DNA of 64,000 bases from a virus (taxonomy: Duplodnaviria; Caudoviricetes), in IMG/VR virus record IMGVR_UViG_3300032332_000934, positions 1 through 64,000 of that record, one strand, 5' to 3'. Positions within the stretch are counted from its first letter, which is position 1, and the number at the start of each line of letters is the position of its first letter. The position numbers and the translations under genes were made by a program. Below are positions 12,497 to 44,203 of this stretch, in pieces. A model generated the notes under the pieces. That model saw only the letters and a list, made by a program, of their open reading frames with translations, was not told where the DNA came from and ran no database searches.

Positions 12497-12695
12497 TAAT
12501 CTTCCTTATCATCTCAATGTAAGCTAGGGTTTCTTCCTCAGTAGGCCCTTTTATATATTCTTCTACTGGTAGACCAGCCCATAGAATAAAAAGAAGGGCG
12601 GAAAGAGGAACATCGTAAGCTATCATTTTACTATTATACTCTACATATGAACTAGACATGTTTTCCTTCAGACAAATCCTTTTTAATAGATTCAA
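12483..12695 (-). CDS. Hypothetical protein
   Basis: ORF track; true start probably the internal MSSSY. Confidence 0.5.
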   Translation of the reverse strand: MNLLKRICLKENMSSSYVEYNSKMIAYDVPLSALLFILWAGLPVEEYIKGPTEEETLAYIEMIRKIIADE

Positions 12696-13275
12696 TAAGC
12701 TTTTCTTTTTTCTCTACAGCATCTAGCAATCCATTATAAATCACTAAAGGGAGGGTCATAAATATAAGAGATCCTCTTCTGCTTAAAGGAAAGGTTTCAT
12801 GAAGAGTCATTCCTCTCATATAAAGAAGATCACCTGGTTCTAATATAACTTTATGTTCTGTCTGATTAATATCATTTGGGTCAACCAATGTCCACTCTAC
12901 TCTGCCAAAACAATTTATATGAATGACATCTGCTTCATCATTATGCAACAAAGCATGGGTCGTATTAATTGATTTATCTCCAGTTTGCATTAGGCTAATA
13001 TAATAGTTGTTGATATTACCGTACAATCTAGATAGATCTTTTACAACTTTATCCCAGCCAGGAAAGTATTTAAGATCTGAATCTTCTATTGATAGCCTTG
13101 GACTTCTCCAACAGCTTCTATTCCAATCAGTAATTTTTTCATCTATATATATATAATTACAGTAATCTAAAAACATTTCAGGAGTTATTTCAAAATCAAT
13201 ACTGTTTTTTAAAACAGAAAATGGGAGATCTTGAATTTTTGCTTCAAGTACATGTTTAACTATTTTGCTAACCAT
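12652..13275 (-). CDS. JmjC/cupin-fold oxygenase-like protein
   Basis: HND..DVIHINCFG.VEW...LEPGDLLY..G..HET; paralog of 48574..49179. Confidence 0.75.
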   Translation of the reverse strand: MVSKIVKHVLEAKIQDLPFSVLKNSIDFEITPEMFLDYCNYIYIDEKITDWNRSCWRSPRLSIEDSDLKYFPGWDKVVKDLSRLYGNINNYYISLMQTGDKSINTTHALLHNDEADVIHINCFGRVEWTLVDPNDINQTEHKVILEPGDLLYMRGMTLHETFPLSRRGSLIFMTLPLVIYNGLLDAVEKKEKLIESIKKDLSEGKHV

Positions 13276-13292
13276 ATAAGTATTATACTCTA

Positions 13293-13308
13293 TGTTTCAC
13301 GTGAAACC
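13293..13308. promoter_or_regulatory. parS: parS site (ParB-binding palindrome)
   Basis: TGTTTCACGTGAAACC: perfect 14-bp palindrome GTTTCACGTGAAAC, 15/16 match to the bacterial parS consensus TGTTTCACGTGAAACA. Confidence 0.8.
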
Positions 13309-13435
13309 AATTAGGACTATATGTTAAGCAAAAAAAAGATTGATAGAGCAAAGAAGCATAGGGCAATAAATCTAATCTTCTTTTTTCTTGGCCATTCATC
13401 TGGCACTCTTACATTATCCATATTCTACTCCTTTG

Positions 13436-13510
13436 TAGGCCTATTGGGATTTGAACCCAAAGTCGATTGCATATAAGACAATTGCTTTAACCAGATTAAG
13501 CTATAGGCCC
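13436..13510 (-). tRNA. tRNA-Ile(UAU)
   Basis: Acceptor GGGCCTA/TAGGCCT-A, anticodon arm ATTGT-CTTATAT-GCAAT, T arm GGTTCAAATCC. Confidence 0.85.
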
Positions 13511-13594
13511 TTATATTAGCCTATTATCTGATAACATATGCCAAGAATAGTAGTCATTACTGTGACTATGATAATGGCATATAGTGTCTTAATT

Positions 13595-14278
13595 TTAGAA
13601 TTCCCCCGCTTTTTCTTTTTGTAATTCTTTATTTCTTAGTTGACTATAAATTTTATAATCAATACTATTATACCTTTTAATTTCTTCTTTTTCATCTTCT
13701 GTTAATGAATTGTAAAGAGTATTTGAATCACCATTAGAATATTTATATTTGTCGACATTTCCTACTTCTATATACTTTAGATCTAGATCATCAGCCAAAG
13801 TGTGAGCTATTTGTTGAATGTTATATCTAAGCAAATCTTGGCTGACTAATAGATCTATTCTATCAATTCGCTCTTGTAGTAAATTTTCATCTATTAACAT
13901 TATATCTTTATTAAAATGTTCACCTTTAGCGTAATTAAAATTTTGTCCAGAAAACAATAGATTTTGAGATTGAAAATTATGAAGCTGTTTTGTATTTCTA
14001 TAGTAATCTAGAAATTGTGACTTTACATCAGTCCCGTTTTTTTCTTTATTTATAAAGTGTAAGTAGAATCCACAGGAATGTTTTACTGGATCTCTTAATA
14101 TGCAAATGATATAGGTTTTATTATCAATAAAATCAGACCATTCATTGTGTTTGCCTACAATTTCTAAATTTTTATTTAGCAATGGGTTTAAGACATATTC
14201 TTTTAGCGCTCTTCCACCAGTTCCAGCTATATGTAGAAAGTAAATGTTTCTATTTTCATCAACCATTCCTTCATCCAC
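13595..14278 (-). CDS. Sulfotransferase family protein
   Basis: YFLHIAGTGG (PAPS loop), ILRDPV, NFQS and NSIDYKIY motifs. Confidence 0.8.
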   Translation of the reverse strand: MDEGMVDENRNIYFLHIAGTGGRALKEYVLNPLLNKNLEIVGKHNEWSDFIDNKTYIICILRDPVKHSCGFYLHFINKEKNGTDVKSQFLDYYRNTKQLHNFQSQNLLFSGQNFNYAKGEHFNKDIMLIDENLLQERIDRIDLLVSQDLLRYNIQQIAHTLADDLDLKYIEVGNVDKYKYSNGDSNTLYNSLTEDEKEEIKRYNSIDYKIYSQLRNKELQKEKAGEF

Positions 14279-14861
14279 TATATACCTTCTTTCTGTTTGT
14301 TTTTAATGATTTATCTGGGGATATTAGATTTTAGGAAAGCCCCCCTACCCCCCAAATTTTTTCTTTTTGGAAAGATAGAGAAAGCAGTTCCTGGAACACA
14401 TATTCACAGATATTATCTGGTACATATTGAGTTTCAGGGTAAGCCCCCCACAAAGCAAACTAAGTGTAGCATTTAAAATTTATCGAAGTCAAGACATTGT
14501 GCTAATTTTTTTTACATGTGTTTCGCAAAGGTTGTATTTTATACCCTTGTTGTTGATCATACTTGTATATGCGTATTTATCGCAAAATGAACATGTCATA
14601 GCTCTATTGTACCACCGCTTTATATTTCAGTCGACTGCTTTTTAGGATTTAAGAAAATGTTAATATATTTTTTACATGTATGATACACACCATGGACAAA
14701 ACGGACATTTTGGATAGTGCGCCCATAATTCTTTGAGCCTTGAGCGTGAGTGTGAGCCTTATCACAAAGATTTATTTGCAACACGCCCGAGATGTGCCTC
14801 AATTTGTCAGTCCCCCATGCTATGCTTAAGGTATAACAAACAAACGAAAGGTACTCATCTA

Positions 14862-15035
14862 ATGAATACACTAAATAGAATAAAGGCAGAGCAAGACCTT
14901 GCTCGCCACATAGCGCATGAAAAGGCTATGGCTAAGGCTCCTCACATCAGAGAGAGCGTTCAGGCGTATCGTAACGCCACCCCTGAGCAACTGGCTCAGG
15001 TAGAGGCACTACGCAAGCGAGTGTATGGCTTCTAA
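14862..15035 (+). CDS. Early hypothetical protein
   Basis: Promoter and AACGAAAGG RBS; ATG at 14862. Confidence 0.7.
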   Translation: MNTLNRIKAEQDLARHIAHEKAMAKAPHIRESVQAYRNATPEQLAQVEALRKRVYGF

Positions 15036-15138
15036 GGTGTGACACAACTCACACCCCACAGGGTGCGTGTCGGCTTGATAATGTCAGCCCAATAGGCTAC
15101 AATTCCATTATAACCAACTAACGAAAGAAGAACAGTAA

Positions 15139-15288
15139 ATGACAATCACATACACAATCTGGGACGGCTCACAATTCCTCGGATTTCAAACCGCTAATAG
15201 CGTAGATGAGATGACTAAGACAGTTAAAGATTTACAAAAGATTTCTAAAAATGTAATAGCACACTTGCGAAAGGTAGAAACTAACTAA
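15139..15288 (+). CDS. Early hypothetical protein (49 aa)
   Basis: Manual translation MTITYTIWDGSQFLG...; TAATG-coupled to the next ORF. Confidence 0.65.
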   Translation: MTITYTIWDGSQFLGFQTANSVDEMTKTVKDLQKISKNVIAHLRKVETN

Positions 15289-15401
15289 TGACACTAGATG
15301 AATACAAACAAATGGTGGAGGCGCAACGCCTCGCCTCTCTAGCCATAGCACTAGAGGCACTTACTAAATCAGAGACTATTGCTAAGGAGATGAATAAGTA
15401 A
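15288..15401 (+). CDS. Early hypothetical protein (37 aa)
   Basis: TAATG-coupled on both sides. Confidence 0.55.
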   Translation: MTLDEYKQMVEAQRLASLAIALEALTKSETIAKEMNK

Positions 15402-15583
15402 TGTCATACGCATACTCATACGAGAATAACAGCGTATCTAAATGGGATACTATCCAAGAAGATGTCGCAGACGCATACACATACCTTGATGAGGTAGATG
15501 AGGAACAACCTCCACTAGATGAGTTTAATGATGAAGATACAGACGAACTAGCAAAACTATACGCACTATCATGGGAAAACTAA
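15401..15583 (+). CDS. Highly acidic small protein (possible DNA mimic or host-factor inhibitor)
   Basis: D/E-rich 60-aa protein; AAGGAG RBS. Confidence 0.6.
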   Translation: MSYAYSYENNSVSKWDTIQEDVADAYTYLDEVDEEQPPLDEFNDEDTDELAKLYALSWEN

Positions 15584-15908
15584 TGAATAGACTACTAACT
15601 ACCCTAGTACAGATAGCCCTTCTAGTACCCGCCCTATACATGGGGCGCATGATGTGGCGTGAGATCGTAGCGGATTACCAAGAGTGGGCTAAATCACACT
15701 AGCCTAACGGCGTGTCGACTTGACATTGTCAAGCTGGCCCGCAAAAGAGCGGGGTTATCCACAGGCTTACGGGCATCTGTGGAAAACCCCTAGATTTATG
15801 TGAGATTTATCACATGACCTGAGCGTCTCACATTTTGGAATTACTCGCTAGTAAGTAGCCAAATGTCAGCCCCTTAGTGTACAATTCCTACTATAACGAA
15901 AAAGAAAG

Positions 15909-16094
15909 GTGGTCACCATGACTACACTAAACACACTATGCAAGGCGCATGAGCCTCTTGTTTCCGCTATCTCCGAAATTGGAGATGAACAATTTACCCT
16001 ATGCATGATTTGCGATAGCAACATTGAGCGTTATTACTACGATAGCGACCCTGAGCAATTCCCTACATGGACAGATTGGTATGTGACTAAATGA
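15909..16094 (+). CDS. Early hypothetical protein (C/H Zn-binding-like)
   Basis: ORF track, promoter and RBS. Confidence 0.65.
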   Translation: MVTMTTLNTLCKAHEPLVSAISEIGDEQFTLCMICDSNIERYYYDSDPEQFPTWTDWYVTK

Positions 16095-16255
16095 GCACTT
16101 TTGTTCCGATTAAATCCGTATGTGGTGCGGTATCTACCACAATCGACATGTATGACTATGAATTAAACCCTCATGGTGTTATTTGTTGCGATAATTGCGA
16201 AAGCATTTTGTTATGCCGTAAGGCGTGGGATTTTCTATACAAGGGAGTTAAGTAA

Positions 16256-16453
16256 ATGGAAAAAACACAATTCGAAAAAGATTTAGAAATAAAAGAAAGT
16301 TTTATAGATTTACTTAATGATGTTTATCCTGATGTAAAGATTGGGTATTCAACTTTTACCGCCGCCGAGATTTTAGAATGTTGCGACCCAATCGCTTTTT
16401 CAATCGGTTTAATTGAACATGAAGATTATTTAGCAGAAATGGAAAATGAATAA
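16256..16453 (+). CDS. Early hypothetical protein
   Basis: ORF track; GGGAG RBS. Confidence 0.7.
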   Translation: MEKTQFEKDLEIKESFIDLLNDVYPDVKIGYSTFTAAEILECCDPIAFSIGLIEHEDYLAEMENE

Positions 16454-16779
16454 TGGATTTTTTTGGATTTGAAAAAGCAATTGAAATTGATCATCTTACC
16501 GATGAGCAAATCTTAAAGCTTGAAGAAATTTTTAAAGATTTCGAATAAGCAACGGTGTGTCGGCTTGACAAAAGCTGATGCGCCCGCAAAAGAGCGGGGT
16601 TATCCACAGGCTTACGGGACTTATCCACAACCCCTGGAATTTTCCGACACGCCCGAGATTTTGTGATTTTTATCACACGGCTTGAGCGTCTCAAAATGTG
16701 GAATTACTTGCCAGTAATGTGAAAATGTCAGTGCGTTAGGCTATAATTGCTACTATCAACAAACGAAAGGTGACAACTA

Positions 16780-16980
16780 ATGTCAGCAAATGTCTATTCC
16801 GTAGAAAACCTACTTGTAGGAAAAATCTATCACTCTCGCTCAGTAAATGGCGAAATTATTTCAGCCGAAAAAAATAATGATGTCTGGTATGCAAATGCAG
16901 ACACTTACAAGGTAGAAATTTCTCCACTTAATTTTGGAAAAAATACTTATCGCTATTTAGCAGTTAAGACAGGTGACTAA
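16780..16980 (+). CDS. Early hypothetical protein
   Basis: Promoter and AACGAAAGGTG RBS. Confidence 0.7.
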   Translation: MSANVYSVENLLVGKIYHSRSVNGEIISAEKNNDVWYANADTYKVEISPLNFGKNTYRYLAVKTGD

Positions 16981-17290
16981 ATGATTAAAGATTATTTAGA
17001 TGAAACCGAATTCTATTTTATTAAAGATGAACAACATTTTTGTTGTGATGAAAGCCAATTTGTTTATGTGTGCAAGACACACGGCGAACAAATGGATTGC
17101 TATTATTGCGGATTTAACTATGATGAGAATTGCGAGGAACAACACTAATGATTAACTCAGTATTAACAATAGAGTGCCAAGATTGCTTAGGTCACGGAGT
17201 AATTTTTTTTGGTAATGATAATGATTTCGATTGCGAACCTTGCGATTGTGTAAATGACGGCTCACTATTTTGGAACGGAGAAAATAACTA

Positions 17291-17497
17291 ATGTATAAAC
17301 TAACTTGCGCTTATGACGGCAACGCACCACATTGGACAGTGGAATACGAAAACGAATACGGGGCTTGGGAAAACTTTTTCCTATTCACCGATTGGGGATT
17401 TGCTGACGAATACTCAACAGTTAATCTTTATACACCAGCAGGCAAATGCCATACAAAAGTTTTTTATCGTGCAGGACGAAAGGTCGTAATTAAATAA
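17291..17497 (+). CDS. Hypothetical protein with TDWGFA motif
   Basis: Homologous to the middle part of 42875..43387. Confidence 0.75.
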   Translation: MYKLTCAYDGNAPHWTVEYENEYGAWENFFLFTDWGFADEYSTVNLYTPAGKCHTKVFYRAGRKVVIK

Positions 17498-17660
17498 TGG
17501 AACACTACGAATTCAATGCTTTCATAACTGTTGAGGCAGAGTCTTATGATGAAGCCATAGATGTATTTCAGTTTCAGTTAAAGTACGGAATAAATAAAGA
17601 CAATGTTTATGTCGCAGACATAAATCAACTAACTAATAACGAAAGTGTGGAAGTATAAAA

Positions 17661-17852
17661 ATGATGACTCGTAAAGATTATGTTGCTGTTGCAGAAATTC
17701 TAAATTTCGCAAGCGATAAAATTCACCCAGCACTATTTTCTAAAATGGTAAATGATTTTGCAGTTATGTTCGCAAAAGATAATGACCGATTTGATGTAAA
17801 TCGTTTTCATGAAGCGAGTGGCTATCATGTCACAAAACTCACTTCGAGATAA
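17661..17852 (+). CDS. Hypothetical protein with DNxRFDxxRF motif
   Basis: Homologous to the C-terminus of 42875..43387. Confidence 0.75.
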   Translation: MMTRKDYVAVAEILNFASDKIHPALFSKMVNDFAVMFAKDNDRFDVNRFHEASGYHVTKLTSR

Positions 17853-18135
17853 AGTAAAACGAATTCAGGAATTGCGCCGCAGTAATGCGGCGCAACCTGT
17901 TCGTAATAAAAAGAAATATTTTAGAAAGATCAAACACAAAAATAAAAATGCAGAGTAGTGCATAGCTATGCAGCCCGCAATACTGCGGGGTTATCCACAG
18001 GCTTACGTGGGTTATCCACAACCCCCTGGATTTTGTGATTAATCTCACAAAAGCTGCGACACGCCGTAAATGGATTAGGTAATGTCAGTGGGATAGGCTA
18101 TAATACTCTTATACCAACAACGAAAGGCAATAAAA

Positions 18136-18339
18136 ATGATAGTAGAACATAATCTAAAATTCGTTACAGAGTTTAAGGACGGCCACCCAGTTACTCAGCA
18201 AGTGCAAATGCTTGATGAAGGCACTCGTGTATTTATGCTAGAGTCAATGCTAAAAGATTTAGTCGGTAGCCGACTACAACCTATCCTTGATGAAATAAAT
18301 GCAGGTGGGTCTTACGCAATTCTTAAGGTGGCAGAATAA
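18136..18339 (+). CDS. Early hypothetical protein
   Basis: Promoter and RBS. Confidence 0.7.
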   Translation: MIVEHNLKFVTEFKDGHPVTQQVQMLDEGTRVFMLESMLKDLVGSRLQPILDEINAGGSYAILKVAE

Positions 18340-18605
18340 TGGGATACAATACAGCGTTAGATTTATCTAATGAATTAGATTTAGAGGTAGCACTAGGTTA
18401 TCACTTACAAGGTAATCATTACCCACCCGTTCCGCTTTCTATGGTACAACCTTGTATTGAGGCTATTGACGCTTACTATGATGAGGATTATAATAAGTTG
18501 ATCGAAATGCCTGAAGGCGTATCTTATAAAGGTGACTCTCATGCGCCAGCGTGGGCTATTATCGAACAGCACCACTTAGACGCTTGGCTACCTGAAAGTG
18601 ACTAA
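18339..18605 (+). CDS. Conserved phage hypothetical protein (HLQGNHYPPVP)
   Basis: ORF track; coupled start. Confidence 0.7.
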   Translation: MGYNTALDLSNELDLEVALGYHLQGNHYPPVPLSMVQPCIEAIDAYYDEDYNKLIEMPEGVSYKGDSHAPAWAIIEQHHLDAWLPESD

Positions 18606-18701
18606 GGTCACACAATAACATTCTCAAATAGTGAGATAGGGCTAGACTAATGTCAGACCCCAATGCTATACTACAACCCTAACAAAGAAAAGAGGCAACA
18701 A

Positions 18702-18884
18702 ATGACAGTAAATGGATACACTTACAAGGTTGGCGATTTATTCACCACCCTAAAGTCAAAAAAGACAGGTGTGATTAAGGAAATCCACCCACAAACATCT
18801 GGCTCGGTGCGTGTGCTACTAGAAATGCCAACGAAAGAAACTCGTTGGACTTCGGTATCTGCTCAAACCTTACTAGGCGTATAA
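18702..18884 (+). CDS. Small SH3/KOW-like beta protein
   Basis: YKVGD...TGVIKEI...VRVLL...RWT pattern; AGAGG RBS. Confidence 0.55.
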   Translation: MTVNGYTYKVGDLFTTLKSKKTGVIKEIHPQTSGSVRVLLEMPTKETRWTSVSAQTLLGV

Positions 18885-18970
18885 TCTAAAAACAGGGGGG
18901 TCGCAGAAATGTCAGACCCTCCTGCTATAATTATTTAATCAAACCAACAAACAACGAAAGAAGGAAACAA

Positions 18971-19393
18971 ATGGCTAGAGGAAAAGCAATCTCAGTTAAA
19001 ATCGCAACACCAAAGGTAATCAAGGCACTAGAAACTGCACTAGCAAAGTTAGAAGCAGATTACACTTCACAAGAAGCAAACGAAGCAAAGTATGAAAAGT
19101 TACGCAAGGCTTGGCAAAAAGAGGTTAGCGATTTCGCAGTTGCTAACATCAAGAAGGCTGAGAACTTCCGCACTAACTATCGTTCTTGGAACAACACACT
19201 CAACATTGACTACGATTTGACAGTATCCGAAAAGGAAATGCCAAAAGAGCCTGAGAAGGACTTTGTAACAATGCACCGCCACTCATACTTAGAGCAGAAG
19301 CAGGAAATCGAAAATGCAATCCGTATTCTGAAAATGACAGATGAGGAAACAGTAAATACTTCAACCTACAATGCGGTTGCACAGTATCTCTAA
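18971..19393 (+). CDS. Early coiled-coil hypothetical protein
   Basis: Strong promoter and RBS. Confidence 0.8.
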   Translation: MARGKAISVKIATPKVIKALETALAKLEADYTSQEANEAKYEKLRKAWQKEVSDFAVANIKKAENFRTNYRSWNNTLNIDYDLTVSEKEMPKEPEKDFVTMHRHSYLEQKQEIENAIRILKMTDEETVNTSTYNAVAQYL

Positions 19394-19427
19394 ATAAAAT
19401 CGTTCTCGCATAACGATAAATTGCGAA

Positions 19428-19454
19428 CAACCTGAGTAAGTTGCTAAACTGCTC
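19428..19454 (+). ncRNA. Putative H-type pseudoknot element, copy 1
   Basis: CAAC-CTGAGTAA-GTTG-CTAAAC-TGCTC; covaries with copy 2. Confidence 0.55.
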
Positions 19455-19489
19455 TCCCTTCGGGGACAACTACTAACAAAGGTAACAAA

Positions 19490-19744
19490 ATGAAAAATCG
19501 TTTCAGAGTAGAAATCTATGATGCAAACAAGAGTAATGATTTAACAATCTATTCAGAGCAAGGTGTTGATAAGGAATACTTAACTGAATTAGCATTCTCT
19601 AATAGAGGAAATTTCTTGGGTGATGTACGTGCTTATGTCTATGATACATTGAAGAAGACTAAGACTACCGCTCTTTATCTTCCCGCCGAGGTTATTAACT
19701 TTAACCGTAAGAATCAATTGACTAGGGATGAGTTGGGTCTATAG
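19490..19744 (+). CDS. Early hypothetical protein
   Basis: ORF track; AAAGG RBS. Confidence 0.7.
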   Translation: MKNRFRVEIYDANKSNDLTIYSEQGVDKEYLTELAFSNRGNFLGDVRAYVYDTLKKTKTTALYLPAEVINFNRKNQLTRDELGL

Positions 19745-19942
19745 AGATCTAACACTGGCTGCAGATATGCAGCTGGCCCGTATATCTGAGGGGTTATCCA
19801 CAGGGTTACGACTGCCTGTGGATATCCCTGGATTTTTGTGATAATGATCACATCTCATAATTCGGACATATTGTGTTTAATCCTAGACAATGTCAGTGGC
19901 AGATGTTATACTTATGACTAATCAAACGAAAGGTAAAAAAAT

Positions 19943-20950
19943 ATGGCTCACAATCTCGAAATGGAAAACGGCGAAGTTGCTTTCGCTCTCCGTGGCGCAC
20001 CTGCATGGCACAACCTTGCAAATCGCATCTTTACACAAGATGAAGATGTTACAACTCAAATGATGTTAGATGAGGCAAAACTTTCCAACTGGAATGTTCG
20101 TCTGTCTCCACTGACTGACCACATCTCAGATACATGGAACGATGTATCTAACGCATCTCTTGTCATTCGTGACAACCCATTCAACAAGGGCACTGATGTT
20201 CTTGCAACTGTTGGAAAGCGTTACAAGCCAGTGCAGAATGAAGAATTATTCGCATTCGCAGATGCAATTCATGATGCAAACGCAGATTGCCGTTGGGAAT
20301 CTGCTGGCTCATTGCGTAGTGGTAAGGTTGTATTCGGTACAGTGGATATTCCTCGCACAATGGTTCTTGACCCACAAGGCGCTAACGATGAAACTAAACT
20401 CTATTTAATTGTATGGACATCACACGATGGCTCAGTAGCGGTTCAAGCAGCCGTTACACCTGTTCGTGTTGTATGCCAAAACACATTGAACCTTGCAATG
20501 CGTAACGCTAAGCAATCATTCAAGATTCGTCACACGCAATCTGTTGAAGGTCGAATTCAAGTTGCTCGTGAAACTCTTGGGCTTGCTCTTGGGTACTTTG
20601 ATGAATTCGAGAAAGAAGCGCAAGCGCTTTATTCTCAGTCAATTACTGATGCTGAATTCTCTAAGTTGATTCAGACAATTTATCCTAAGCCTGCTGACGA
20701 TGCAGCAAAAGTTGCGCTAACAAAGTGGGAGAACAAAGTCGTTCTGCTTGATTCTTTGTATCATAACTCACCAACTAACGCTAATATCAAGGGAACAAAG
20801 TGGGGTGCATTTAATGCACTAACTGAGCGCCTAGATTATTATCGTTCAGGGCGTGGAAATTCTGAAACACTTATGGCTGGTGCATCAGGGTTCGACCCAA
20901 TTCTAACTGCTGAGAAAAACAAAATCAAGAAATTGGTTTCTGCTTTCTAA
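19943..20950 (+). CDS. DUF932 family (phage/plasmid LGT-type) protein
   Basis: MAHNLE...AWH.L, YKPVQNEE.F, SHDGS and TPVRVVCQNTL motifs. Confidence 0.85.
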   Translation: MAHNLEMENGEVAFALRGAPAWHNLANRIFTQDEDVTTQMMLDEAKLSNWNVRLSPLTDHISDTWNDVSNASLVIRDNPFNKGTDVLATVGKRYKPVQNEELFAFADAIHDANADCRWESAGSLRSGKVVFGTVDIPRTMVLDPQGANDETKLYLIVWTSHDGSVAVQAAVTPVRVVCQNTLNLAMRNAKQSFKIRHTQSVEGRIQVARETLGLALGYFDEFEKEAQALYSQSITDAEFSKLIQTIYPKPADDAAKVALTKWENKVVLLDSLYHNSPTNANIKGTKWGAFNALTERLDYYRSGRGNSETLMAGASGFDPILTAEKNKIKKLVSAF

Positions 20951-20957
20951 ATAAATA

Positions 20958-20984
20958 ATTCCTGAGCATGAATAAAAACTGCTC
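20958..20984 (+). ncRNA. Putative H-type pseudoknot element, copy 2
   Basis: ATTC-CTGAGCAT-GAAT-AAAAAC-TGCTC; spacing identical to copy 1. Confidence 0.55.
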
Positions 20985-20996
20985 ACATTTTTTCTT

Positions 20997-21070
20997 GGTC
21001 CATTAGCTCAGTTGGTTAGAGCGCTACCCTGTCACGGTAGAGGTCGACAGTTCAAGTCTGTTATGGATCG
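20997..21070 (+). tRNA. tRNA-Asp(GUC)
   Basis: Acceptor GGTCCAT/ATGGATC-G; anticodon arm CTACC-CTGTCAC-GGTAG. Confidence 0.9.
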
Positions 21071-21174
21071 CTAAGTGCCCTCAATGCTAAGGGGGCAAAA
21101 AATGTGTTACGACTCACATAAAATTTCCCTGGAATCTATTGATAATGTCAGTGGGTTCGTGTATAATTCTCTTC

Positions 21175-21837
21175 ATGACCAACGAACTAGTATCAAGTAA
21201 GTATACCTTTGTCTGTGACCCAGACGAATGCGATTGTCTGATAGAACTAACATCATCTGATGGATTTGGCTTTCCTTCAGGTGTGACAGAACTCACATGC
21301 CCGTGTGGCCGAAAGACCACATTAGTGTCAGTGGAGCATGCTACAATTACACCAACAACAACGAAAGAGGAAAAAATGGAAGAAACAACTGTAGGAACTA
21401 TTAACGACCTGCTTACACCTTACAACCCTGATATGTTAGTAACATACAAAAAGATTAGTGGTTATTCTGATACAGAATTCCTTACTGATAAGGTTCGCAA
21501 CATTGAATGGGAACTCCACAACGCTAGAACTAATTCTAAAGCGGTATCTGCAATTCAGAATAAGATTAGTTTAGTTAAGGATATTATTACTGAGGCATAT
21601 GCTGATTCAGATGACCAAGATACATTGCGCGAGATTGCCGAAGCACTTGAGATTGAACTTACACGTGAAGTTGAATGGTCTGCAACAATTGAGGTTAGCG
21701 GAACATTAACAATTGATTTGCTTGAAAGCACAGTTGATGATGTCGAACAAGAAATCTACGACAATCTTTATGTTGATTCACAAAACGGTCAGATTGAAAT
21801 TGTTGACACCGAAGTATGTAATGTGCGTGAGAACTAA
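21175..21837 (+). CDS. Hypothetical protein with Cys-rich N-terminal extension; nested in-frame start at 21376
   Basis: Leaderless ATG 7 nt after the -10 hexamer; a second promoter and RBS lie inside the ORF. Confidence 0.7.
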   Translation: MTNELVSSKYTFVCDPDECDCLIELTSSDGFGFPSGVTELTCPCGRKTTLVSVEHATITPTTTKEEKMEETTVGTINDLLTPYNPDMLVTYKKISGYSDTEFLTDKVRNIEWELHNARTNSKAVSAIQNKISLVKDIITEAYADSDDQDTLREIAEALEIELTREVEWSATIEVSGTLTIDLLESTVDDVEQEIYDNLYVDSQNGQIEIVDTEVCNVREN

Positions 21838-22040
21838 TGTACTTTGAACTTACCGCTCCTGATATGCTCTCTATGCAGAGAGCGTATTGGGATGCAGAGA
21901 TAACGGGACTTGACCCACAAGCAATGTCTGCGTTGACATTCAACATCGGAACTGGTAGTATTGAGAAAGTAAGTAGGCTTAGAGATAAGTACAACTTAAC
22001 TGAATCTTATGTATCAGACCACGAAACCACAGGTTATTAA
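21837..22040 (+). CDS. Hypothetical protein
   Basis: TAATG coupling. Confidence 0.65.
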   Translation: MYFELTAPDMLSMQRAYWDAEITGLDPQAMSALTFNIGTGSIEKVSRLRDKYNLTESYVSDHETTGY

Positions 22041-22192
22041 GGAGAGATTATGTCAGAGTATAAAGATGGTTGGGCAGATGGTTACAAGTTTGCTCGTGAT
22101 GAAATCATGGAAAAGTTATCAGAGATTGATATTAATGATATTGATTCTTGGATTCTTGACCGTCTATCTGAGATGATCGAAGGTGGCAAACT

Positions 22193-22384
22193 GTGATGGC
22201 TGAATGGCTTAAGTGTGACCAGTGTGCAGCTCAGGCTATGTGGGAAGCAAAAAAAGATAACGCATCTCTTTTCTTTTGCGGTCACCATAAAAATAAACAG
22301 GGCGAGTCTCTTGTGGACTGGGCCCATGAAATGGTACAATTACTCAAGTACGAAGAAAATCAACTACTAACGAAAGCAGAATAA
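22193..22384 (+). CDS. Zn-finger-like protein (CDQC...FCGHH)
   Basis: Actinobacterial/actinophage-type CDxC..FCxHH motif. Confidence 0.65.
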   Translation: MMAEWLKCDQCAAQAMWEAKKDNASLFFCGHHKNKQGESLVDWAHEMVQLLKYEENQLLTKAE

Positions 22385-22385
22385 A

Positions 22386-22751
22386 ATGGGCGATAGAGCA
22401 AACTTTGGATTCAGAGATTCCAAGGAGAACGTAGTATTTCTATATGGGCACTGGGCTGGACATAACATGCTAGCCAAGTTGGCCAATGCTGTGCAGGCTG
22501 CAGAGCCACGCTGGCAGGATGAATCATATGCAACACGCATTGCTATATCTAATCTAATTGGAGAAGACTGGACTCAGACAACAGGCTGGGGAATTTATGT
22601 TAACCAATTAGGGGACAACGAACACAAGGTACCTGTAATTGACTGGACCAACGAAACGTTTACATTGTACGAAGAGGACCTGAGCACGGTAGTGTTTACA
22701 TCATCCTTGGCGTCATTTGTGGACAAATACAGTCGACTAGTTATGGTATAA
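22386..22751 (+). CDS. Conserved actinophage hypothetical protein (MGDRAN...LYGHWAG)
   Basis: ORF track and RBS. Confidence 0.75.
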   Translation: MGDRANFGFRDSKENVVFLYGHWAGHNMLAKLANAVQAAEPRWQDESYATRIAISNLIGEDWTQTTGWGIYVNQLGDNEHKVPVIDWTNETFTLYEEDLSTVVFTSSLASFVDKYSRLVMV

Positions 22752-22876
22752 TTAGACCTAGGACATTAATCCTGGTTTTAATATAGAAATGAAATGGTGC
22801 GTCTATTTAGTCTTTATGGCCAGGCGCTAAGTAAAGCGGTTTATTTCTTTCGTTGGAAATCAGCAGCCATATTCAT

Positions 22877-22908
22877 ACCCCCCAGCTTTTAGCTGGGGGT
22901 TTCTTTTT
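22877..22908 (+). terminator. Intrinsic terminator
   Basis: CCCCCAGC-tttta-GCTGGGGG followed by TTTCTTTTT. Confidence 0.8.
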
Positions 22909-23084
22909 GCCCGCAAAGACTTGAGGGTAGCATATTGTCTTTACGACTGTCAAATACATTTCCCAGGATTTGGTGTGATGTTGATCACATTCCACATAAA
23001 ATGTGGCGGGGATCACAAAGCTTTTCTATTCCATTTGTCAGTGGTCCATTGTATAATTGGAACATATCAACGAAAGGATATAAA

Positions 23085-23822
23085 ATGCCAAATTGGGTAT
23101 ATAACGGATTAACTATTGAAGGTAATCCTGAGCAAGTAAAATCTCTAATCAAGCAGATGAATAAGCCATTTGTTTATTCTATTACTGCAGTAGGTGATTT
23201 GTCATATGATGTTAAGCAGACTAAGTATGTTAATCCTATCTTTGCTTTTCATAATATCTATAACTATAGAGATGCTGGTATTACTGATGAGGTATATCAT
23301 GGACAACCTCCTCGTTCCACCGACCAAGATTGGTTTAAGTTTGATACCAATGACTGGTATAACTTTAATGTCCGTGAGTGGGGCACCAAATGGGATGTAG
23401 CCGTAGCCGAGGATAATAAGTATCCTGATACAACTATTGAGGAAGCAGAAAATGGCGAGAACTATGTAGTTCACTATAACTTTAATACTGCTTGGTCTCG
23501 TCCAATGAATGCTTTAATTAAACTATCATCTCAATATCCAACATTACTATTTACTTTATCATATGAAGAAGAAACAGGCTGGGGTGGGGAATGTGAATTC
23601 CTTCGTGGAGAAGTTATCTCAGAATCAGAATACGAGAACCAATGCCGTGACTGTGATGCCACAGATTGCATGGAGTATTGTGAGGAAGAAGACTGTGGAG
23701 AAATTTGTAATGTATGCCATTGGCTAGGAGAGGCTGACCTAGAGGCTGTGGCTAAATGTCAGACCCATAAGATATACTTAGACACTAAAGTACCCGAATA
23801 TAGAAAGGTGGGAACCAAATGA
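23085..23822 (+). CDS. DUF1281/YubB-like ferredoxin-fold protein with Cys-rich tail
   Basis: MPNWVYNGLTI, WYNFNVREWGTKWD and FNTAWS.P motifs; start corrected to ATG at 23085. Confidence 0.8.
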   Translation: MPNWVYNGLTIEGNPEQVKSLIKQMNKPFVYSITAVGDLSYDVKQTKYVNPIFAFHNIYNYRDAGITDEVYHGQPPRSTDQDWFKFDTNDWYNFNVREWGTKWDVAVAEDNKYPDTTIEEAENGENYVVHYNFNTAWSRPMNALIKLSSQYPTLLFTLSYEEETGWGGECEFLRGEVISESEYENQCRDCDATDCMEYCEEEDCGEICNVCHWLGEADLEAVAKCQTHKIYLDTKVPEYRKVGTK

Positions 23823-24049
23823 GTTTTCTAGAGAATGAAAACCAAATGGTAATAGACGCAACATATCAAGAGATTGGAGAAATGCTAGTCGAAGACTGGG
23901 TTAACTCCAATTTAGATGAAGGCCAACTGTTTGCAGATTATAGATTTGCAGAAATGGCAGATAACAATTACTTAAAGGGTAGATTTAATCAGTTTTATGA
24001 TTTGAAACCAGGTGACCAGTATTATCTAGAATGGGATGAGGAGAAGTAA
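23819..24049 (+). CDS. Acidic hypothetical protein
   Basis: ATGA overlap. Confidence 0.65.
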   Translation: MSFLENENQMVIDATYQEIGEMLVEDWVNSNLDEGQLFADYRFAEMADNNYLKGRFNQFYDLKPGDQYYLEWDEEK

Positions 24050-24211
24050 TGTTAGGTTATGACTTAGAGGATTTAAATATAATGATCGATTCATTAGAAG
24101 AAGTTATTCAGATTGAAGAATCTTCTCAGACCCCTTCAATTTCTGATAGAAATCTAGGCGGACTTAAAACAAGTTTATCGTTCTTACAAGGACTATGGGC
24201 AGAGGGCTATT

Positions 24212-24430
24212 TTGACTAAGTCATCAGCATTCCTAGAATATATGAAGATACATCTAATTAGTCTTAACCAGGACTTAGAGGAATGTATGTATATATGGAG
24301 AACAGATAGAGATAATCATGATAGTTCTAAGATAGATTATTTAAATGGACAAATTGTTGCAACCAGGCATTTATTGTCAGTGGCTACTGATATAATGAAT
24401 AACTCTAACGAAAGGTATAACAATGAATAA
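24212..24430 (+). CDS. Hypothetical protein
   Basis: ORF track; its 3' end contains a TGTCAG promoter. Confidence 0.55.
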   Translation: MTKSSAFLEYMKIHLISLNQDLEECMYIWRTDRDNHDSSKIDYLNGQIVATRHLLSVATDIMNNSNERYNNE

Positions 24431-24695
24431 TGAAGACATTGGGCTCCCGCCCCATTTGCAACGTTTGGTTAATGCAGGTGTTAGTGGATTAGATATAATG
24501 CACGGTGAACTAAAGAATCTAATGCTAATTGCCGAGCAGGAACTAGCAGACGCAATCGAACGGGAAGAAGAATCAGAAGAAGCAATGGACTCTATGGTCC
24601 GTACAGAATGCGAAGGTGCACTAGACACCTTGGTAGCCCTATATGAACTAACATACCAACTCTCATTTGCGATTGGAGCACGTGGTGAAGCCTGA
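24423..24695 (+). CDS. Hypothetical protein
   Basis: Promoter and AACGAAAGG RBS. Confidence 0.7.
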   Translation: MNNEDIGLPPHLQRLVNAGVSGLDIMHGELKNLMLIAEQELADAIEREEESEEAMDSMVRTECEGALDTLVALYELTYQLSFAIGARGEA

Positions 24696-24999
24696 AGATA
24701 AAGATAAACTAAACAAGTGTTTAGAAATTCTAGATGACACAGACTTAGGTCTATCATTAGTTTGGCTATGGACATGGTCGACAATTAATAATATACTAGA
24801 GGATGAGACCTATAAGGCTAACGCTAGCAAAGACGACATGTGGAATCACCTGTGTGAGGCTGTAGAGGCTGGAATGGGCTTCTCCCTAGAATACGGTGCA
24901 GACCAACATCATGAAGACGTACAAGACTGGATGTTAAGCAGAGACTACATTGTAGACACAATGTTTGAAGAAGAGGAGGACGAAGATGAAGATGAGTGA
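24667..24999 (+). CDS. Acidic-tailed hypothetical protein
   Basis: ORF track; true start probably a GTG near 24685. Confidence 0.65.
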   Translation: MRLEHVVKPEDKDKLNKCLEILDDTDLGLSLVWLWTWSTINNILEDETYKANASKDDMWNHLCEAVEAGMGFSLEYGADQHHEDVQDWMLSRDYIVDTMFEEEEDEDEDE

Positions 25000-25125
25000 C
25001 AAGTATCTAAACGATCAACTTAGTACAGCCCAAAAGCTTTTGTGGGGTGGGTCCGAAACAGAAAACATCGAGGCACATAACATCATTGCTAAACTAATTC
25101 AAGATAAGGTAGAACAGGTGGAACT

Positions 25126-25311
25126 ATGAGAAAAGACTATAAGATTTACGGTGACCGTATGCAGGAGTTTTACGTAACCGTTAGCGCAGAGTCACACGAC
25201 CTTGCGTGGGAAGCAGCCAAGCAAATCCCTGCAGAGGGTTGGACTGAAATCCCAACTGATGACATGATTGACCCATACAACGCAGTAGAAGTAGAACTTA
25301 CAATTAAATAA
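25126..25311 (+). CDS. Hypothetical protein (VxAESxxxA family)
   Basis: ORF track; resembles small ORFs starting near 17497 and at 45050. Confidence 0.6.
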   Translation: MRKDYKIYGDRMQEFYVTVSAESHDLAWEAAKQIPAEGWTEIPTDDMIDPYNAVEVELTIK

Positions 25312-25460
25312 AGATAGGTTGAGCCGTTATGGACAATTCGGACATAACGGTCTTCAATCTAAGGGCACGGGCAAAAATATTGCTTTACGTACCCTATTTA
25401 CAAATCCCCGAAATTCGGATATAATATATATAACAACTCGATCTAGAAAGGATCAAACAA

Positions 25461-25613
25461 ATGACATCAACACCAACAACAACTCGTGAATATCTAAAGG
25501 CCCAGGGAATTTCTGTGGGCAAGCGTGGCCGCTTCTCAGCTGCAGCTCTAGGAGCTATCAGCAAGGCAGCACAATCAGGCGTGGTCTTCTCAGACACAAA
25601 GAACGTCAAGTAA
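25461..25613 (+). CDS. Stand-alone Lsr2-like DNA-binding domain protein (50 aa)
   Basis: Missed by the ORF track. MTSTPTTTREYLKAQGISVGKRGRFSAAALGAI matches the Lsr2 C-terminal RExxxxxGxxVxxRGR AT-hook pattern; GAAAGGA RBS; downstream hairpin. Confidence 0.75.
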   Translation: MTSTPTTTREYLKAQGISVGKRGRFSAAALGAISKAAQSGVVFSDTKNVK

Positions 25614-25623
25614 TAACTAACTG

Positions 25624-25655
25624 TGGGGACCTTCCTCTTCGGAGGCAGGTCCCCC
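25624..25655 (+). terminator. Hairpin with TTCG tetraloop
   Basis: GGGGACCTtCCTC-TTCG-GAGGcAGGTCCCC. Confidence 0.65.
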
Positions 25656-25712
25656 TTCATTTACAAATGTCAGTGCCCAATGGTATAATCAAAACGAAAG
25701 AGGTGGAACTTA

Positions 25713-26057
25713 ATGGCTAAAGCGAACGAATTCAAAGCAGCAGAAAAATTAACAGACTATCTAAATAATGCTAACTTCTCACCTGCCGTAATGGCAAATG
25801 TATTAACAACTGAACATACCTTATACACCCAAGACAGGCTAATGGAACTAGTTAGATATATCATTCAATACAATTCCCTTAGATTAAAGTCAGAATGGGA
25901 TAAAGGATACACATCCGAAGGATTGCTTTTAGCAGATGCGCTCAATGACATCCTCGAAGCAAAATACGGGGCGGTAGATAGAAACCTAACAATAGACTCC
26001 TTGAAAGAAACAAGAGTAAGAGATAGTAAATATATAATGGACTTAGATTCATTCTAA
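25713..26057 (+). CDS. Hypothetical protein, last ORF of the + strand island
   Basis: Promoter and RBS. Confidence 0.75.
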   Translation: MAKANEFKAAEKLTDYLNNANFSPAVMANVLTTEHTLYTQDRLMELVRYIIQYNSLRLKSEWDKGYTSEGLLLADALNDILEAKYGAVDRNLTIDSLKETRVRDSKYIMDLDSF

Positions 26058-26465
26058 GATAACTTCCCCTATGGGGCATATGGCTTTAATTAGCTGTATG
26101 TCCCATTTTTGTATGCCCATCTTATGGGCCAAATTTCTTCTTTACGATCACATATAAAAAACCCTGGAAAATGTATAATAAATCTAATATAATCTGTCAA
26201 AATGTGCATAGAATATCTCATTATATGAGACAAATAATGCAGAATCTGACAGAATTTTTTGCCATATATATGGGCCAAAATTGCTCTTTACGAACAAATA
26301 AAAAAATTTCCTGGAATTTTATATGAAAGCTATTGACAAATATTGGCCAATATGCTTTATATGGGGCCTGTTGACATTACGTCCCATCATATGATATGCT
26401 CAATTACATAGCTATATTCAGATAGTTATAATGATAGTATTTGGATCTAAATTGATAGTATGATT

Positions 26466-26491
26466 CTCCACAATACTCCACTTTACTCCAC
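26466..26491 (-). promoter_or_regulatory. MraZ-box-like triple direct repeat, GTGGAG-N4
   Basis: CTCCAC at 26466, 26476 and 26486 (10-bp period). Confidence 0.55.
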
Positions 26492-26902
26492 TATATAAAG
26501 CCCTACAAGGGCTATTATAGAGGAGATAAATGGGAGGGGGATATAGGAGTTAGGAGCTAATTTATTGCAATTTGCTCTTATTCTTAGATGGTCTTCTAGA
26601 CCAATCTGGAGCTTTATTTGCATTAGTTCCTCTAGATGTAGACTCTATTAGGGCTTTATTCTTATCTAATGCTTCTTGGGCATATTGAAGCTGTTGATCC
26701 CAATTGAACTTCCGTTTTTTTGCCATATCTATATTATACTATATTAGTATAATTCTAGTCAACCATTATCTTACTGAGCATTCCAGACACACAAATGGGT
26801 CATCATTAGCCTTATAAAATAGGATCTTACATTCGCTACATGCTACCTTATATGGCTCATAGCCCTTGACATACTTTTCATAGGATGATTGAAACTTATT
26901 CA

Positions 26903-43387: not shown

Positions 43388-43685
43388 ATGGTTTTCCTTC
43401 TAACTCGACTCTAACTCCGTAAGATTCAAGAAGCTTCTTTGCCCTTGAAACATAATCAATAACTTTTTCTTTTTCAATTCCATCAAATTGTATAAAGTTA
43501 TCTTCATACAATCTTAATGCTAAAAACTCTGGGTACTGAACAACATCCATAAGTAGGAACATTGGCTTATTCAGCTCTCTTAGTTTATTTTTCATCTCTA
43601 AGTTATAAAAAACTGGTTTGTTTGGCTCACCAGTCCACTGATTCATTCCATATTTAAAATGCTTGTCATCATAAACATTAGACAT
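43380..43685 (-). CDS. Hypothetical protein
   Basis: ORF track, start trimmed. Confidence 0.65.
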   Translation of the reverse strand: MSNVYDDKHFKYGMNQWTGEPNKPVFYNLEMKNKLRELNKPMFLLMDVVQYPEFLALRLYEDNFIQFDGIEKEKVIDYVSRAKKLLESYGVRVELEGKPYG

Positions 43686-43989
43686 TTTGTTTTGCTCTAA
43701 TCTGTTTCCATATGTCTTTTGTCTTATGAACATTTTTCATTTTATCAATTAATCCTGAAGATAAATATACTCCGCCCCAAACACCATATTCATTATTTTC
43801 AATCCCAGATTGGTGGCATATCTTCATAACTGGGCAAGACAGGCAGCATTGATCTATAGCCTTGGCCATATTTATATCAGATTCATATTTGTCAAAAAAT
43901 AGATTGGTGTCCATTCCGCTACATGCAGCAAGGTGCCACCATCTAATTGACTGTTCATCTGAATCTAATTCATTTAAAATATTTGACAT
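43678..43989 (-). CDS. whiB: WhiB-family Fe-S transcription factor
   Basis: W..AAC.G.D...FF...C.SCPV...C......E.GVWGG. Confidence 0.9.
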   Translation of the reverse strand: MSNILNELDSDEQSIRWWHLAACSGMDTNLFFDKYESDINMAKAIDQCCLSCPVMKICHQSGIENNEYGVWGGVYLSSGLIDKMKNVHKTKDIWKQIRAKQNV

Positions 43990-44203
43990 ACTTTGTTGGC
44001 AATACCCAAACTCCATCTTTATTAACAGCAAATTTGCTACTAATGCCCCAATTATTTTTTCTATATTCTCCGTTTACATTAAAAAACCCAGAAGAATTTT
44101 TTTTCCATAGGATAACGTCATAGTTATTCCATCTAATCTCTAAACTATTTGAATTTGCTCTTTTCTTTAAAAGCTCAACACCTGATTCATAAAGACATAT
44201 CAC
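43970..44203 (-). CDS. Hypothetical protein
   Basis: ORF track. Confidence 0.6.
   Translation of the reverse strand: MICLYESGVELLKKRANSNSLEIRWNNYDVILWKKNSSGFFNVNGEYRKNNWGISSKFAVNKDGVWVLPTKYVKYFK

Follow-up and report, generated by a model that had tools for sequence, protein, structure and literature searches.

A block of small, presumably early genes in an uncultured tailed phage was found to be built around promoter cassettes that carry consensus sites of the kind bound by host CRP and DnaA, with a copy of an MraZ-type operator at the far end of the block. The DNA under study (the window) comprises the first 64 kb of the 114,966-bp virus record IMGVR_UViG_3300032332_000934 (Caudoviricetes), and the region in question spans positions 13,293–26,491. 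As judged by genome comparison, the mraZ array, the origin-side DnaA boxes and the parS palindrome of the phage match those of the candidate host lineage. We put at about even the chance that the units are early promoter–terminator cassettes whose consensus operators make them dependent on host factors.

Motif counts in the region were compared with Markov-1 simulations of that region, and 80 related loci were compared with it, lower site counts occurring mostly where a contig end falls inside the block. The nearest genomic match of the phage WhiB protein was a contig of an uncultured Aquiluna metagenome-assembled genome (MAG), and the candidate host sets comprised 61 genomes sampled from the order of Aquiluna and 30 or 31 genomes of its family.

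CRP-type sites and DnaA-box pairs in ordered cassettes

The perfect palindrome TGTGA-N6-TCACA was observed eight times in the region, against 0.015 expected, and these eight are all the copies in the 115-kb genome. Each of these sites precedes a promoter, the order being fixed and the spacing helically phased. The site centre was placed 62.5 bp from the −10 element for the site at 14751–14766 (promoter 14804), 52.5 bp for 15038–15053 (promoter 15081), 73.5 bp for 15799–15814 (promoter 15863), 72.5 bp for 16662–16677 (promoter 16725), 52.5 bp for 21282–21297 (promoter 21325) and 70.5 bp for 22974–22989 (promoter 23035). The site at 18034–18049, 57.5 bp from the −10 element of promoter 18082, belongs to an off-phase class, and the site at 19837–19852 has half-sites that are invariant in 49 distinct orthologs around a variable central 6 bp. 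A relaxed site, GTGA-N6-TCAC, was located at 18598–18611, about 62 bp from the −10 element of promoter 18650. Across 229 distinct modules, the distance from site centre to −10 start was 51–53, 61–63, 70–73 or 83 bp in 88% of cases. This spacing by whole helical turns points to contact with RNA polymerase on one face of the helix; a pure decoy would not need phasing.

The DnaA box TTATCCACA was observed six times in the region, against 0.18 expected, and seven times in the genome. Four pairs of boxes were found. The pair at 15755–15786 combines TTATCCACA with an inverted TTTTCCACA, the starts being 23 bp apart; the pairs at 16600–16629 and 17991–18020, both on the plus strand, each consist of two direct copies of TTATCCACA with starts 21 bp apart; and the pair at 19794–19825 combines TTATCCACA, which is 99% conserved, with an inverted ATATCCACA. 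The six perfect TTATCCACA boxes and the partners TTTTCCACA and ATATCCACA all conform to the consensus TT[A/T]TNCACA, and the start-to-start spacing is fixed at 21 bp for direct and 23 bp for inverted pairs. Most lineages have the second box of the pair at 19794–19825 inverted; four (L065, L066, L068 and L082) have it direct, and the 9-mer is kept. Because this box switches orientation yet stays a DnaA box, selection acts on the 9-mer and not on a hairpin. A hairpin formed by the inverted pair was rejected as the conserved feature, since orthologs with direct pairs cannot form it and retain the 9-mers.

Over 30 candidate-host-family genomes, the boxes seen most often 3′ of dnaA were TTATCCACA (48), TTTTCCACA (13) and then TTGTCCACA (10). 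On this comparison the phage variants TTATCCACA and TTTTCCACA are the origin-side variants of the candidate host lineage, the host assignment itself being tentative.

The order of box pair, CRP-type site and promoter is fixed, and in full the recurring module runs through a hairpin, a box pair, CCTGGA, a CRP-type site, a promoter and a ribosome-binding site. A GC-rich hairpin of the form GCCCnn...nnGGGG abuts DnaA box 1 at 19776–19793 on the plus strand; copies of the same form lie at 15737–15754, 16582–16599 and 17973–17990, and the cassette hairpin shows compensatory changes in relatives. The cassette 5′ of the DUF932 gene (19943–20950, plus strand) was aligned by a synteny anchor over 49 distinct sequences, and identity to the majority base was calculated. 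The values were 0.99 for DnaA box 1, 1.00 for the CRP half-sites, 1.00 for the ATGTCAG promoter element described below and 0.98 for the −10 element, while the low values of the same alignment were 0.75 for the inter-box spacer, 0.86 for the central 6 bp of the CRP-type site and 0.83 for the whole region. A further conserved block, ATTCGGACATATTGT, occupies 19860–19874 on the plus strand between the CRP-type site and the −35 element (97% conserved). As many as 10 CRP-type sites and as many as nine TTATCCACA boxes are retained per related locus. To judge from these alignments, the sites are under purifying selection in the phage clade. A search for the same motifs in the Streptomyces phage relatives Jay2Jay and Gilson found none, and by this comparison the site architecture is specific to freshwater clades.

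Two side observations concern the same cassettes. The element CCCTGGA, just 5′ of the CRP-type sites, is 92% conserved. In one relative (L084) the first cassette hairpin 5′ of the DUF932 gene is replaced by an extra inverted TTATCCACA pair, giving four boxes.

An earlier interpretation of this DNA (the sequence-only reading) had listed eight perfect CRP-type sites, four DnaA-box pairs, recurring modules upstream of promoters and an MraZ-type triple repeat, and all of these were recovered. Its premise that the motifs exceed background held for TGTGA-N6-TCACA and TTATCCACA, for which the enrichment over simulations was extreme and confined to the block, and for the parS palindrome and the CTCCAC triple, and its premise that they are conserved in related phages held for the DnaA boxes and the CRP half-sites in the 49 distinct orthologs.

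Promoters and layout of the block

The block contains 14 near-identical promoter units of 23 nt, all on the plus strand, each made up of [A/T]TGTCAG, 10 bp and a TAnnnT −10 element, and each followed by a AACGAAAGG-type ribosome-binding site and a start codon. The units start at 14804 (14804–14826, with a −35 element directly upstream), 15081, 15863, 16725, 18082, 18650, 18909, 19890, 21145, 21325, 23035, 23756, 24374 and 25667 (25667–25689, the last of the block). One other match was present in the remaining 100 kb and is probably due to chance. A generic promoter scan described the promoters as sigma-70-type, with a −35 element (TTGATA, TAGACA or TTTACA), a 17-bp spacer and TATAAT; the full promoter of the DUF932 gene (19884–19912, plus strand) has TAGACA, a 17-bp spacer starting with ATGTCAG, and TATACT.

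In every block promoter the 17-bp spacer opens with ATGTCAG (7 bp), which is 99.7% conserved in relatives. Across 31 candidate-host-family genomes the ATGTCAG variant is no commoner than expected by chance (four matches in about 90 Mb), which argues for a phage-specific element, probably an operator through which a phage factor controls all promoters of this class. The possibility that TGTCAG replaces the −35 element in the manner of a MotA box was rejected, as a −35 hexamer lies directly upstream and ATGTCAG opens a spacer of the normal 17 bp.

The block itself consists of about 35 small plus-strand genes, presumed early, at 14862–26057, with minus-strand genes on both flanks. Its G+C fraction (0.36–0.43 over 15001–26000) compares with 0.29–0.34 in the flanking DNA. 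Family matches were obtained for only three block proteins, namely DUF932, a DUF1281_C/Api92-like protein (23085–23822, plus strand) and DUF7455 (22193–22384, plus strand), and a recognisable DNA-binding domain was found in none of the 30 block proteins scanned. A transfer RNA (tRNA) gene, tRNA-Asp(GTC), lies inside the block at 20997–21071. The small-gene block forms the physical genome end in Gilson and lies inside the 10.8-kb terminal repeat of Streptomyces phage Jay2Jay, where a DUF932 homolog is found. The non-coding DNA that bounds the block holds a 41-nt direct repeat ending in TTTTTTTTACATGT (14479–14519 and 14639–14679). Just outside the block, a segment with tRNA-Ile(TAT) (13435–13510) is 95–100% identical in many relatives while the neighbouring DNA differs, and it therefore marks a recombination boundary.

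An MraZ-type array at the distal end of the block

The sequence GTGGAG-TAAA-GTGGAG-TATT-GTGGAG, with a 10-bp period, occupies 26466–26491 on the minus strand. The pattern (CTCCAC-N4)x3 was observed once in the region, against approximately zero expected, and is single-copy in the genome. The GTGGAG hexamers and the 10-bp period are invariant in relatives, while the spacers vary. At its distal end the block gives way to about 500 bp of non-coding DNA (26058–26561), in which the array lies together with several promoter-like sites and a 64-nt direct repeat starting with TATGGGCCAAA (26123–26186 and 26269–26332). A terminator-like hairpin at 26499–26513, with compensatory changes, separates the convergent minus-strand operon from the array.

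In the Aquiluna MAG, GTGGAG-CAAA-GTGGAG-TAAA-GTGGAG stands directly 5′ of mraZ, and the phage array shares its hexamer, copy number and spacing. The pattern (GTGGAG-N4)x3 was found once per genome in 12 of the 61 genomes of the order, always 25–95 nt 5′ of mraZ and in the same orientation, and a reversed-pattern control gave no occurrence in the 61 genomes. In these host mraZ promoters the second spacer always starts with TA, which creates a TAnnGT −10-like hexamer, and several have a TTGACG-type −35 element abutting the first box, so that the host array overlaps the core promoter. The phage array retains TAnnGT as TATTGT, and another −10-like hexamer, TACTAT, is also present; both are candidate promoter elements only. 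It could be that the CUCCAC repeats act instead as seeds of a small RNA. No Rfam family match was obtained, and a protein site is the likelier explanation because the exact 10-bp period is invariant and is that of the host operator.

The GTGGAG triple was present in at least 119 contigs of the viral collection, where a rough calculation from its 18 specified bases gives a chance expectation of a handful. Among the viral matches listed, no mraZ gene was found beside the triple. These matches comprised 109 distinct contexts, of which 46 have the architecture of the phage studied here (terminator hairpin, then triple) and 50 form a sister group in which TTACTGAT precedes the triple; in 42 of these 50, one to three DnaA boxes lie within 120 nt 5′ of the triple. 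Both groups have 0.4–1.2 kb of non-coding DNA between the 3′ end of the block and the array, which is on the opposite strand and reads toward the block. The sister clade is thus, on the evidence of these contexts, an independent association of DnaA and MraZ host-type sites in a compact module. No paper on MraZ operators in phages was found in the literature searched, and within that literature phage DNA with a copied mraZ operator appears not to have been described.

The sister-clade module (L141, L150, L196, L203 and about 45 others) has two or three tandem TTATCCACA boxes, TTACTGAT, about 22 nt, the GTGGAG triple and then CGTAATGTCA, and also holds CAAACC and TTGTCAA repeats in a non-coding region of about 1 kb. 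The contigs are of low GC, and some are about 119 kb long. This compound module could be an origin or a terminus.

parS, WhiA-type boxes and phage-encoded regulators

The parS-type palindrome GTTTCACGTGAAAC lies at 13294–13307, where it overlaps the spacer and −35 element of the promoter of a minus-strand gene (12652–13275). This gene is leaderless, has its TATAAT at 13282–13287 on the minus strand, and encodes a product with a weak JmjC-like match. The 14-mer was observed once in the region, against approximately zero expected, and is single-copy in the genome. It is the same 14-mer as the native parS, which is present in one to nine copies near dnaA in 30 of the 31 genomes of the candidate host family. 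Among relatives it occurs only in those that carry gene 12652–13275, one of which has a point mutation. The parS palindrome given by the sequence-only reading is therefore present, while its conservation is limited to the sub-lineage sharing this gene; on these comparisons it is a genuine host-type site and an accessory feature outside the conserved system.

The WhiA-type GACAC boxes that had also been proposed did not hold up, as GACAC was observed 17 times against 17.4 expected and is not enriched. The longer string CGACACG was observed four times in the region against 0.4 expected. An element of about 10 bp, CCGACACGCC or its complement, recurs in the cassettes at 15066, 15711, 16645 and 18057, with variants at 14783 and 16556, and contains the WhiA core GACAC.

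Domain searches of the whole phage genome found no ParB_N, DnaA_C, MraZ or WhiA helix-turn-helix (HTH) domain, and no HTH_Crp_2 domain above the cut-off. The earlier statement that parB, dnaA, crp, whiA and mraZ genes are lacking from the window and that a whiB gene is present (43678–44031, minus strand) was confirmed by these searches.

Phage relatives and the candidate host

The record has a GC content of 36%. Its large terminase shows 63% identity to the enzymes of Stanwilliamsviridae that infect Streptomyces, Gilson, Jay2Jay and Coruscant among them, and the phage is a distant relative of that family. A megablast of the region against GenBank phages gave no match. A close homolog of the DUF932 protein is encoded by more than 260 IMG/VR contigs, the best 80 of which have 92–98% protein identity, and the sample series of these relatives look like freshwater metagenomes. 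The ‘direct terminal repeat’ of the record was rejected as such, being a 113-bp assembly overlap that marks a circular assembly.

An actinobacterial host is likely despite the GC content of 36%, since the phage carries a WhiB gene, a marker of such hosts, and shares 63% terminase identity with Streptomyces phages, and since its relatives are apparently from freshwater. A Gram-negative or Firmicute host, as the GC content and the E. coli-type DnaA box might suggest, was rejected on the WhiB gene and the Streptomyces-phage-like terminase. Nor was the E. coli-type box accepted as a sign of a non-actinobacterial host, since TTATCCACA is the main origin-side box in low-GC Microbacteriaceae. Of 31 candidate-host-family genomes, 30 encode proteins with a CRP-family HTH (HTH_Crp_2), a domain that is not specific to CRP/GlxR. 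The 57-kb contig of the Aquiluna MAG that matched the phage WhiB (G001:C2) is itself a related phage, with a terminase 56% and a WhiB 59% identical to those of the phage studied here. The MAG therefore holds binned viral DNA, and the contig was rejected as host DNA.

How the operators may be used

One interpretation of these data, to which we give an even chance, is that of host-dependent early cassettes. Each cassette would start with a small GC hairpin that ends the upstream unit and finish with a sigma-70/sigma-A-type promoter whose 17-bp spacer opens with ATGTCAG; between the two, four cassettes have a consensus DnaA-box pair, followed in order by the perfect CRP/GlxR-type palindrome that eight or nine of them carry. 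Host RNA polymerase would transcribe the block right after DNA entry. Host cyclic AMP (cAMP)–CRP, bound at the helically phased sites, would tune promoter strength, probably by activation, and host DnaA, bound 50–70 bp further upstream, would add an input of replication status. The copied host mraZ operator, in the distal non-coding region, would put a phage site, and perhaps a convergent promoter, under MraZ, and a phage factor acting at ATGTCAG would later switch the whole promoter class. Both the binding proteins and the direction of regulation are inferred from the sites. In a broader version, which we hold tentatively and consider rather doubtful, a large and abundant group of freshwater actinophages would use the panel of operators (sometimes with a ParB site) to time the early genes to host replication, division and carbon status, and genome amplification would then titrate the regulators, which are of low abundance, and take over the cell cycle.

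Several observations weigh against host-dependent cassettes. The 57–58 bp class of CRP-type sites (11% of modules) is out of helical phase, and, with the −10 element placed at −12 to −7, the other centres fall at about −64.5, −74.5 and −84.5, roughly 3 bp off the E. coli class I optima. No activating arrangement is established for DnaA boxes as far upstream as these (about −115 to −135), and no gene follows the GTGGAG array. The majority of the block proteins fall outside known families, and the actual binder could be any one of them. The early status of the genes is deduced only from the architecture and from synteny with Jay2Jay and Gilson, and the link to an Aquiluna host is weak, resting on a phage contig binned into a MAG.

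It could be that the sites act as a sponge, soaking up host DnaA, CRP and MraZ (and ParB) as the genome multiplies, with promoter regulation incidental; host replication initiation would be shut down and carbon and division control rewired. All sites are perfect consensus and presumably of the highest affinity, the eight DnaA boxes per phage genome are comparable to an origin, and the Aquiluna MAG has only two perfect CRP-type sites in 1.9 Mb outside the phage contig, compared with eight in 8 kb here. The GTGGAG array, like the DnaA boxes of the sister clade, lies in non-coding DNA without a gene to regulate. However, a pure decoy needs no phasing, order or fixed distances, all three of which are seen, and each genome supplies one MraZ array and at most one parS. 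We consider a sponge unlikely as the main function; some titration would be unavoidable if the proteins bind at all, and this effect is compatible with host-factor cassettes and is not an alternative to them. The sites might otherwise be bound by phage-encoded proteins of no known family whose specificity is shared with, or convergent on, that of host factors, for example an early-to-middle repressor acting on TGTGA-N6-TCACA. About 30 block proteins lack a detectable family, palindromes and direct repeats are typical of phage operators, and the phage-specific ATGTCAG (four matches in about 90 Mb) implies that the phage has regulatory sites of its own. Such convergence is nevertheless improbable, because four unrelated motifs each equal a different host operator exactly, including the format of the mraZ array and the 14-mer of parS. 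Positions 52–83 bp upstream of the −10 element would be unusual for a repressor, and the domain searches detected no DnaA-, CRP-, MraZ- or ParB-related domain. We regard phage-encoded binders as quite unlikely.

Two further explanations concern the DNA as a whole. In T5-like phages, eight paired DnaA boxes are conserved in the first-step-transfer (iss) region of 25 phages, and it was proposed, without test, that they bind membrane-bound DnaA (Davison, bioRxiv 10.1101/866236). By analogy, DnaA (and MraZ) on the present sites would hold or pause the incoming genome end at the membrane. The number of boxes, eight in four pairs, equals that of T5-like phages, the syntenic block is at or in the genome terminus in Gilson and Jay2Jay, and the sister-clade DnaA boxes and GTGGAG array lie in a large untranslated distal region, like the T5 iss. 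Against this, the box pairs are spread among promoter cassettes and do not form one untranslated cluster, the 113-bp overlap does not fix the termini, the T5 model is itself a proposal only, and the phasing of the CRP-type sites has no place in such a signal, which we judge very unlikely. An origin or partition mimic, in which host DnaA fires a phage origin and parS recruits ParB/SMC to segregate a plasmid-like or carrier-state genome, would draw on DnaA boxes and a parS that are those of the origin region of the host lineage and lie within about 6.5 kb. However, most relatives lack parS, which overlaps an accessory-gene promoter; the box pairs lie 0.8–1.8 kb apart over 4 kb with expressed genes between them; an AT-rich unwinding element was not identified; none of the proteins examined was seen to be an integrase or a partition protein; and GC skew follows the direction of transcription only. 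This explanation appears highly improbable. The sequence-only reading had offered three possibilities, and among them the wiring of early expression to host state fits best, the CRP-type sites being ordered, phased and upstream of promoters, while the oriC mimic is the weakest, with box pairs dispersed over 4 kb between small genes and a parS that is not conserved; the third, the decoy, is a plausible second effect.

Comparison with known systems

The proposed host-dependent cassettes can be compared with several described systems. As in the T5-like phages, eight consensus or near-consensus boxes stand in pairs within the early or terminal segment of large lytic siphovirus genomes, are conserved across the group and are not accompanied by a phage DnaA; the function of the T5 boxes is a proposal. 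The T5 pairs are 3 bp apart and lie in large inverted repeats within one untranslated region, whereas the pairs of the present phage have 21- or 23-bp spacing and stand each in a separate promoter cassette with a CRP-type site. The likely hosts here are Actinomycetota and not Enterobacteria, and the MraZ, CRP and parS sites have no T5 counterpart.

Like the PeSL cassettes of T4-type phages (PMC2839356, PMC4122927), the present units combine a repeated intergenic stem-loop with an early promoter, flank small genes of unknown family, lie in a plastic region, and are paralogous to one another, with apparent exchange from position to position. PeSLs have not been reported with host transcription-factor operators, whereas the cassettes studied here carry DnaA- and CRP-type sites together with a phage-specific spacer element.

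The distal array resembles the native mraZ (dcw-cluster) promoter–operator of Actinomycetales in its three GTGGAG hexamers, exact 10-bp period and TAnnGT hexamer. Unlike the native operator, the phage copy is followed by neither mraZ nor any other gene and lacks a good −35 element; it stands in non-coding DNA behind a terminator hairpin, and its strand is opposite to that of the block, toward which it is oriented.

CRP and GlxR of Actinomycetota use the same consensus as E. coli CRP. As in the class I CRP promoters of E. coli, a perfect 16-bp palindrome lies 5′ of a sigma-70-type promoter at positions of whole helical turns; the offset of about 3 bp from the class I optima that distinguishes the phage centres is reckoned from the predicted −10 elements.

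Phages are known to borrow single host factors. In the present case four operators of host cell-cycle and physiology control appear to be kept as exact copies of those of the lineage, in fixed geometry, across hundreds of apparently freshwater contigs. If the reading is correct, the captured mraZ operator would represent the first instance in which a phage targets the MraZ/dcw circuit, and operator matches may give a new kind of host clue for uncultured phages. The cassettes would also make testable how lytic phages of slow-growing bacteria in nutrient-poor settings sense or reset the state of their hosts.

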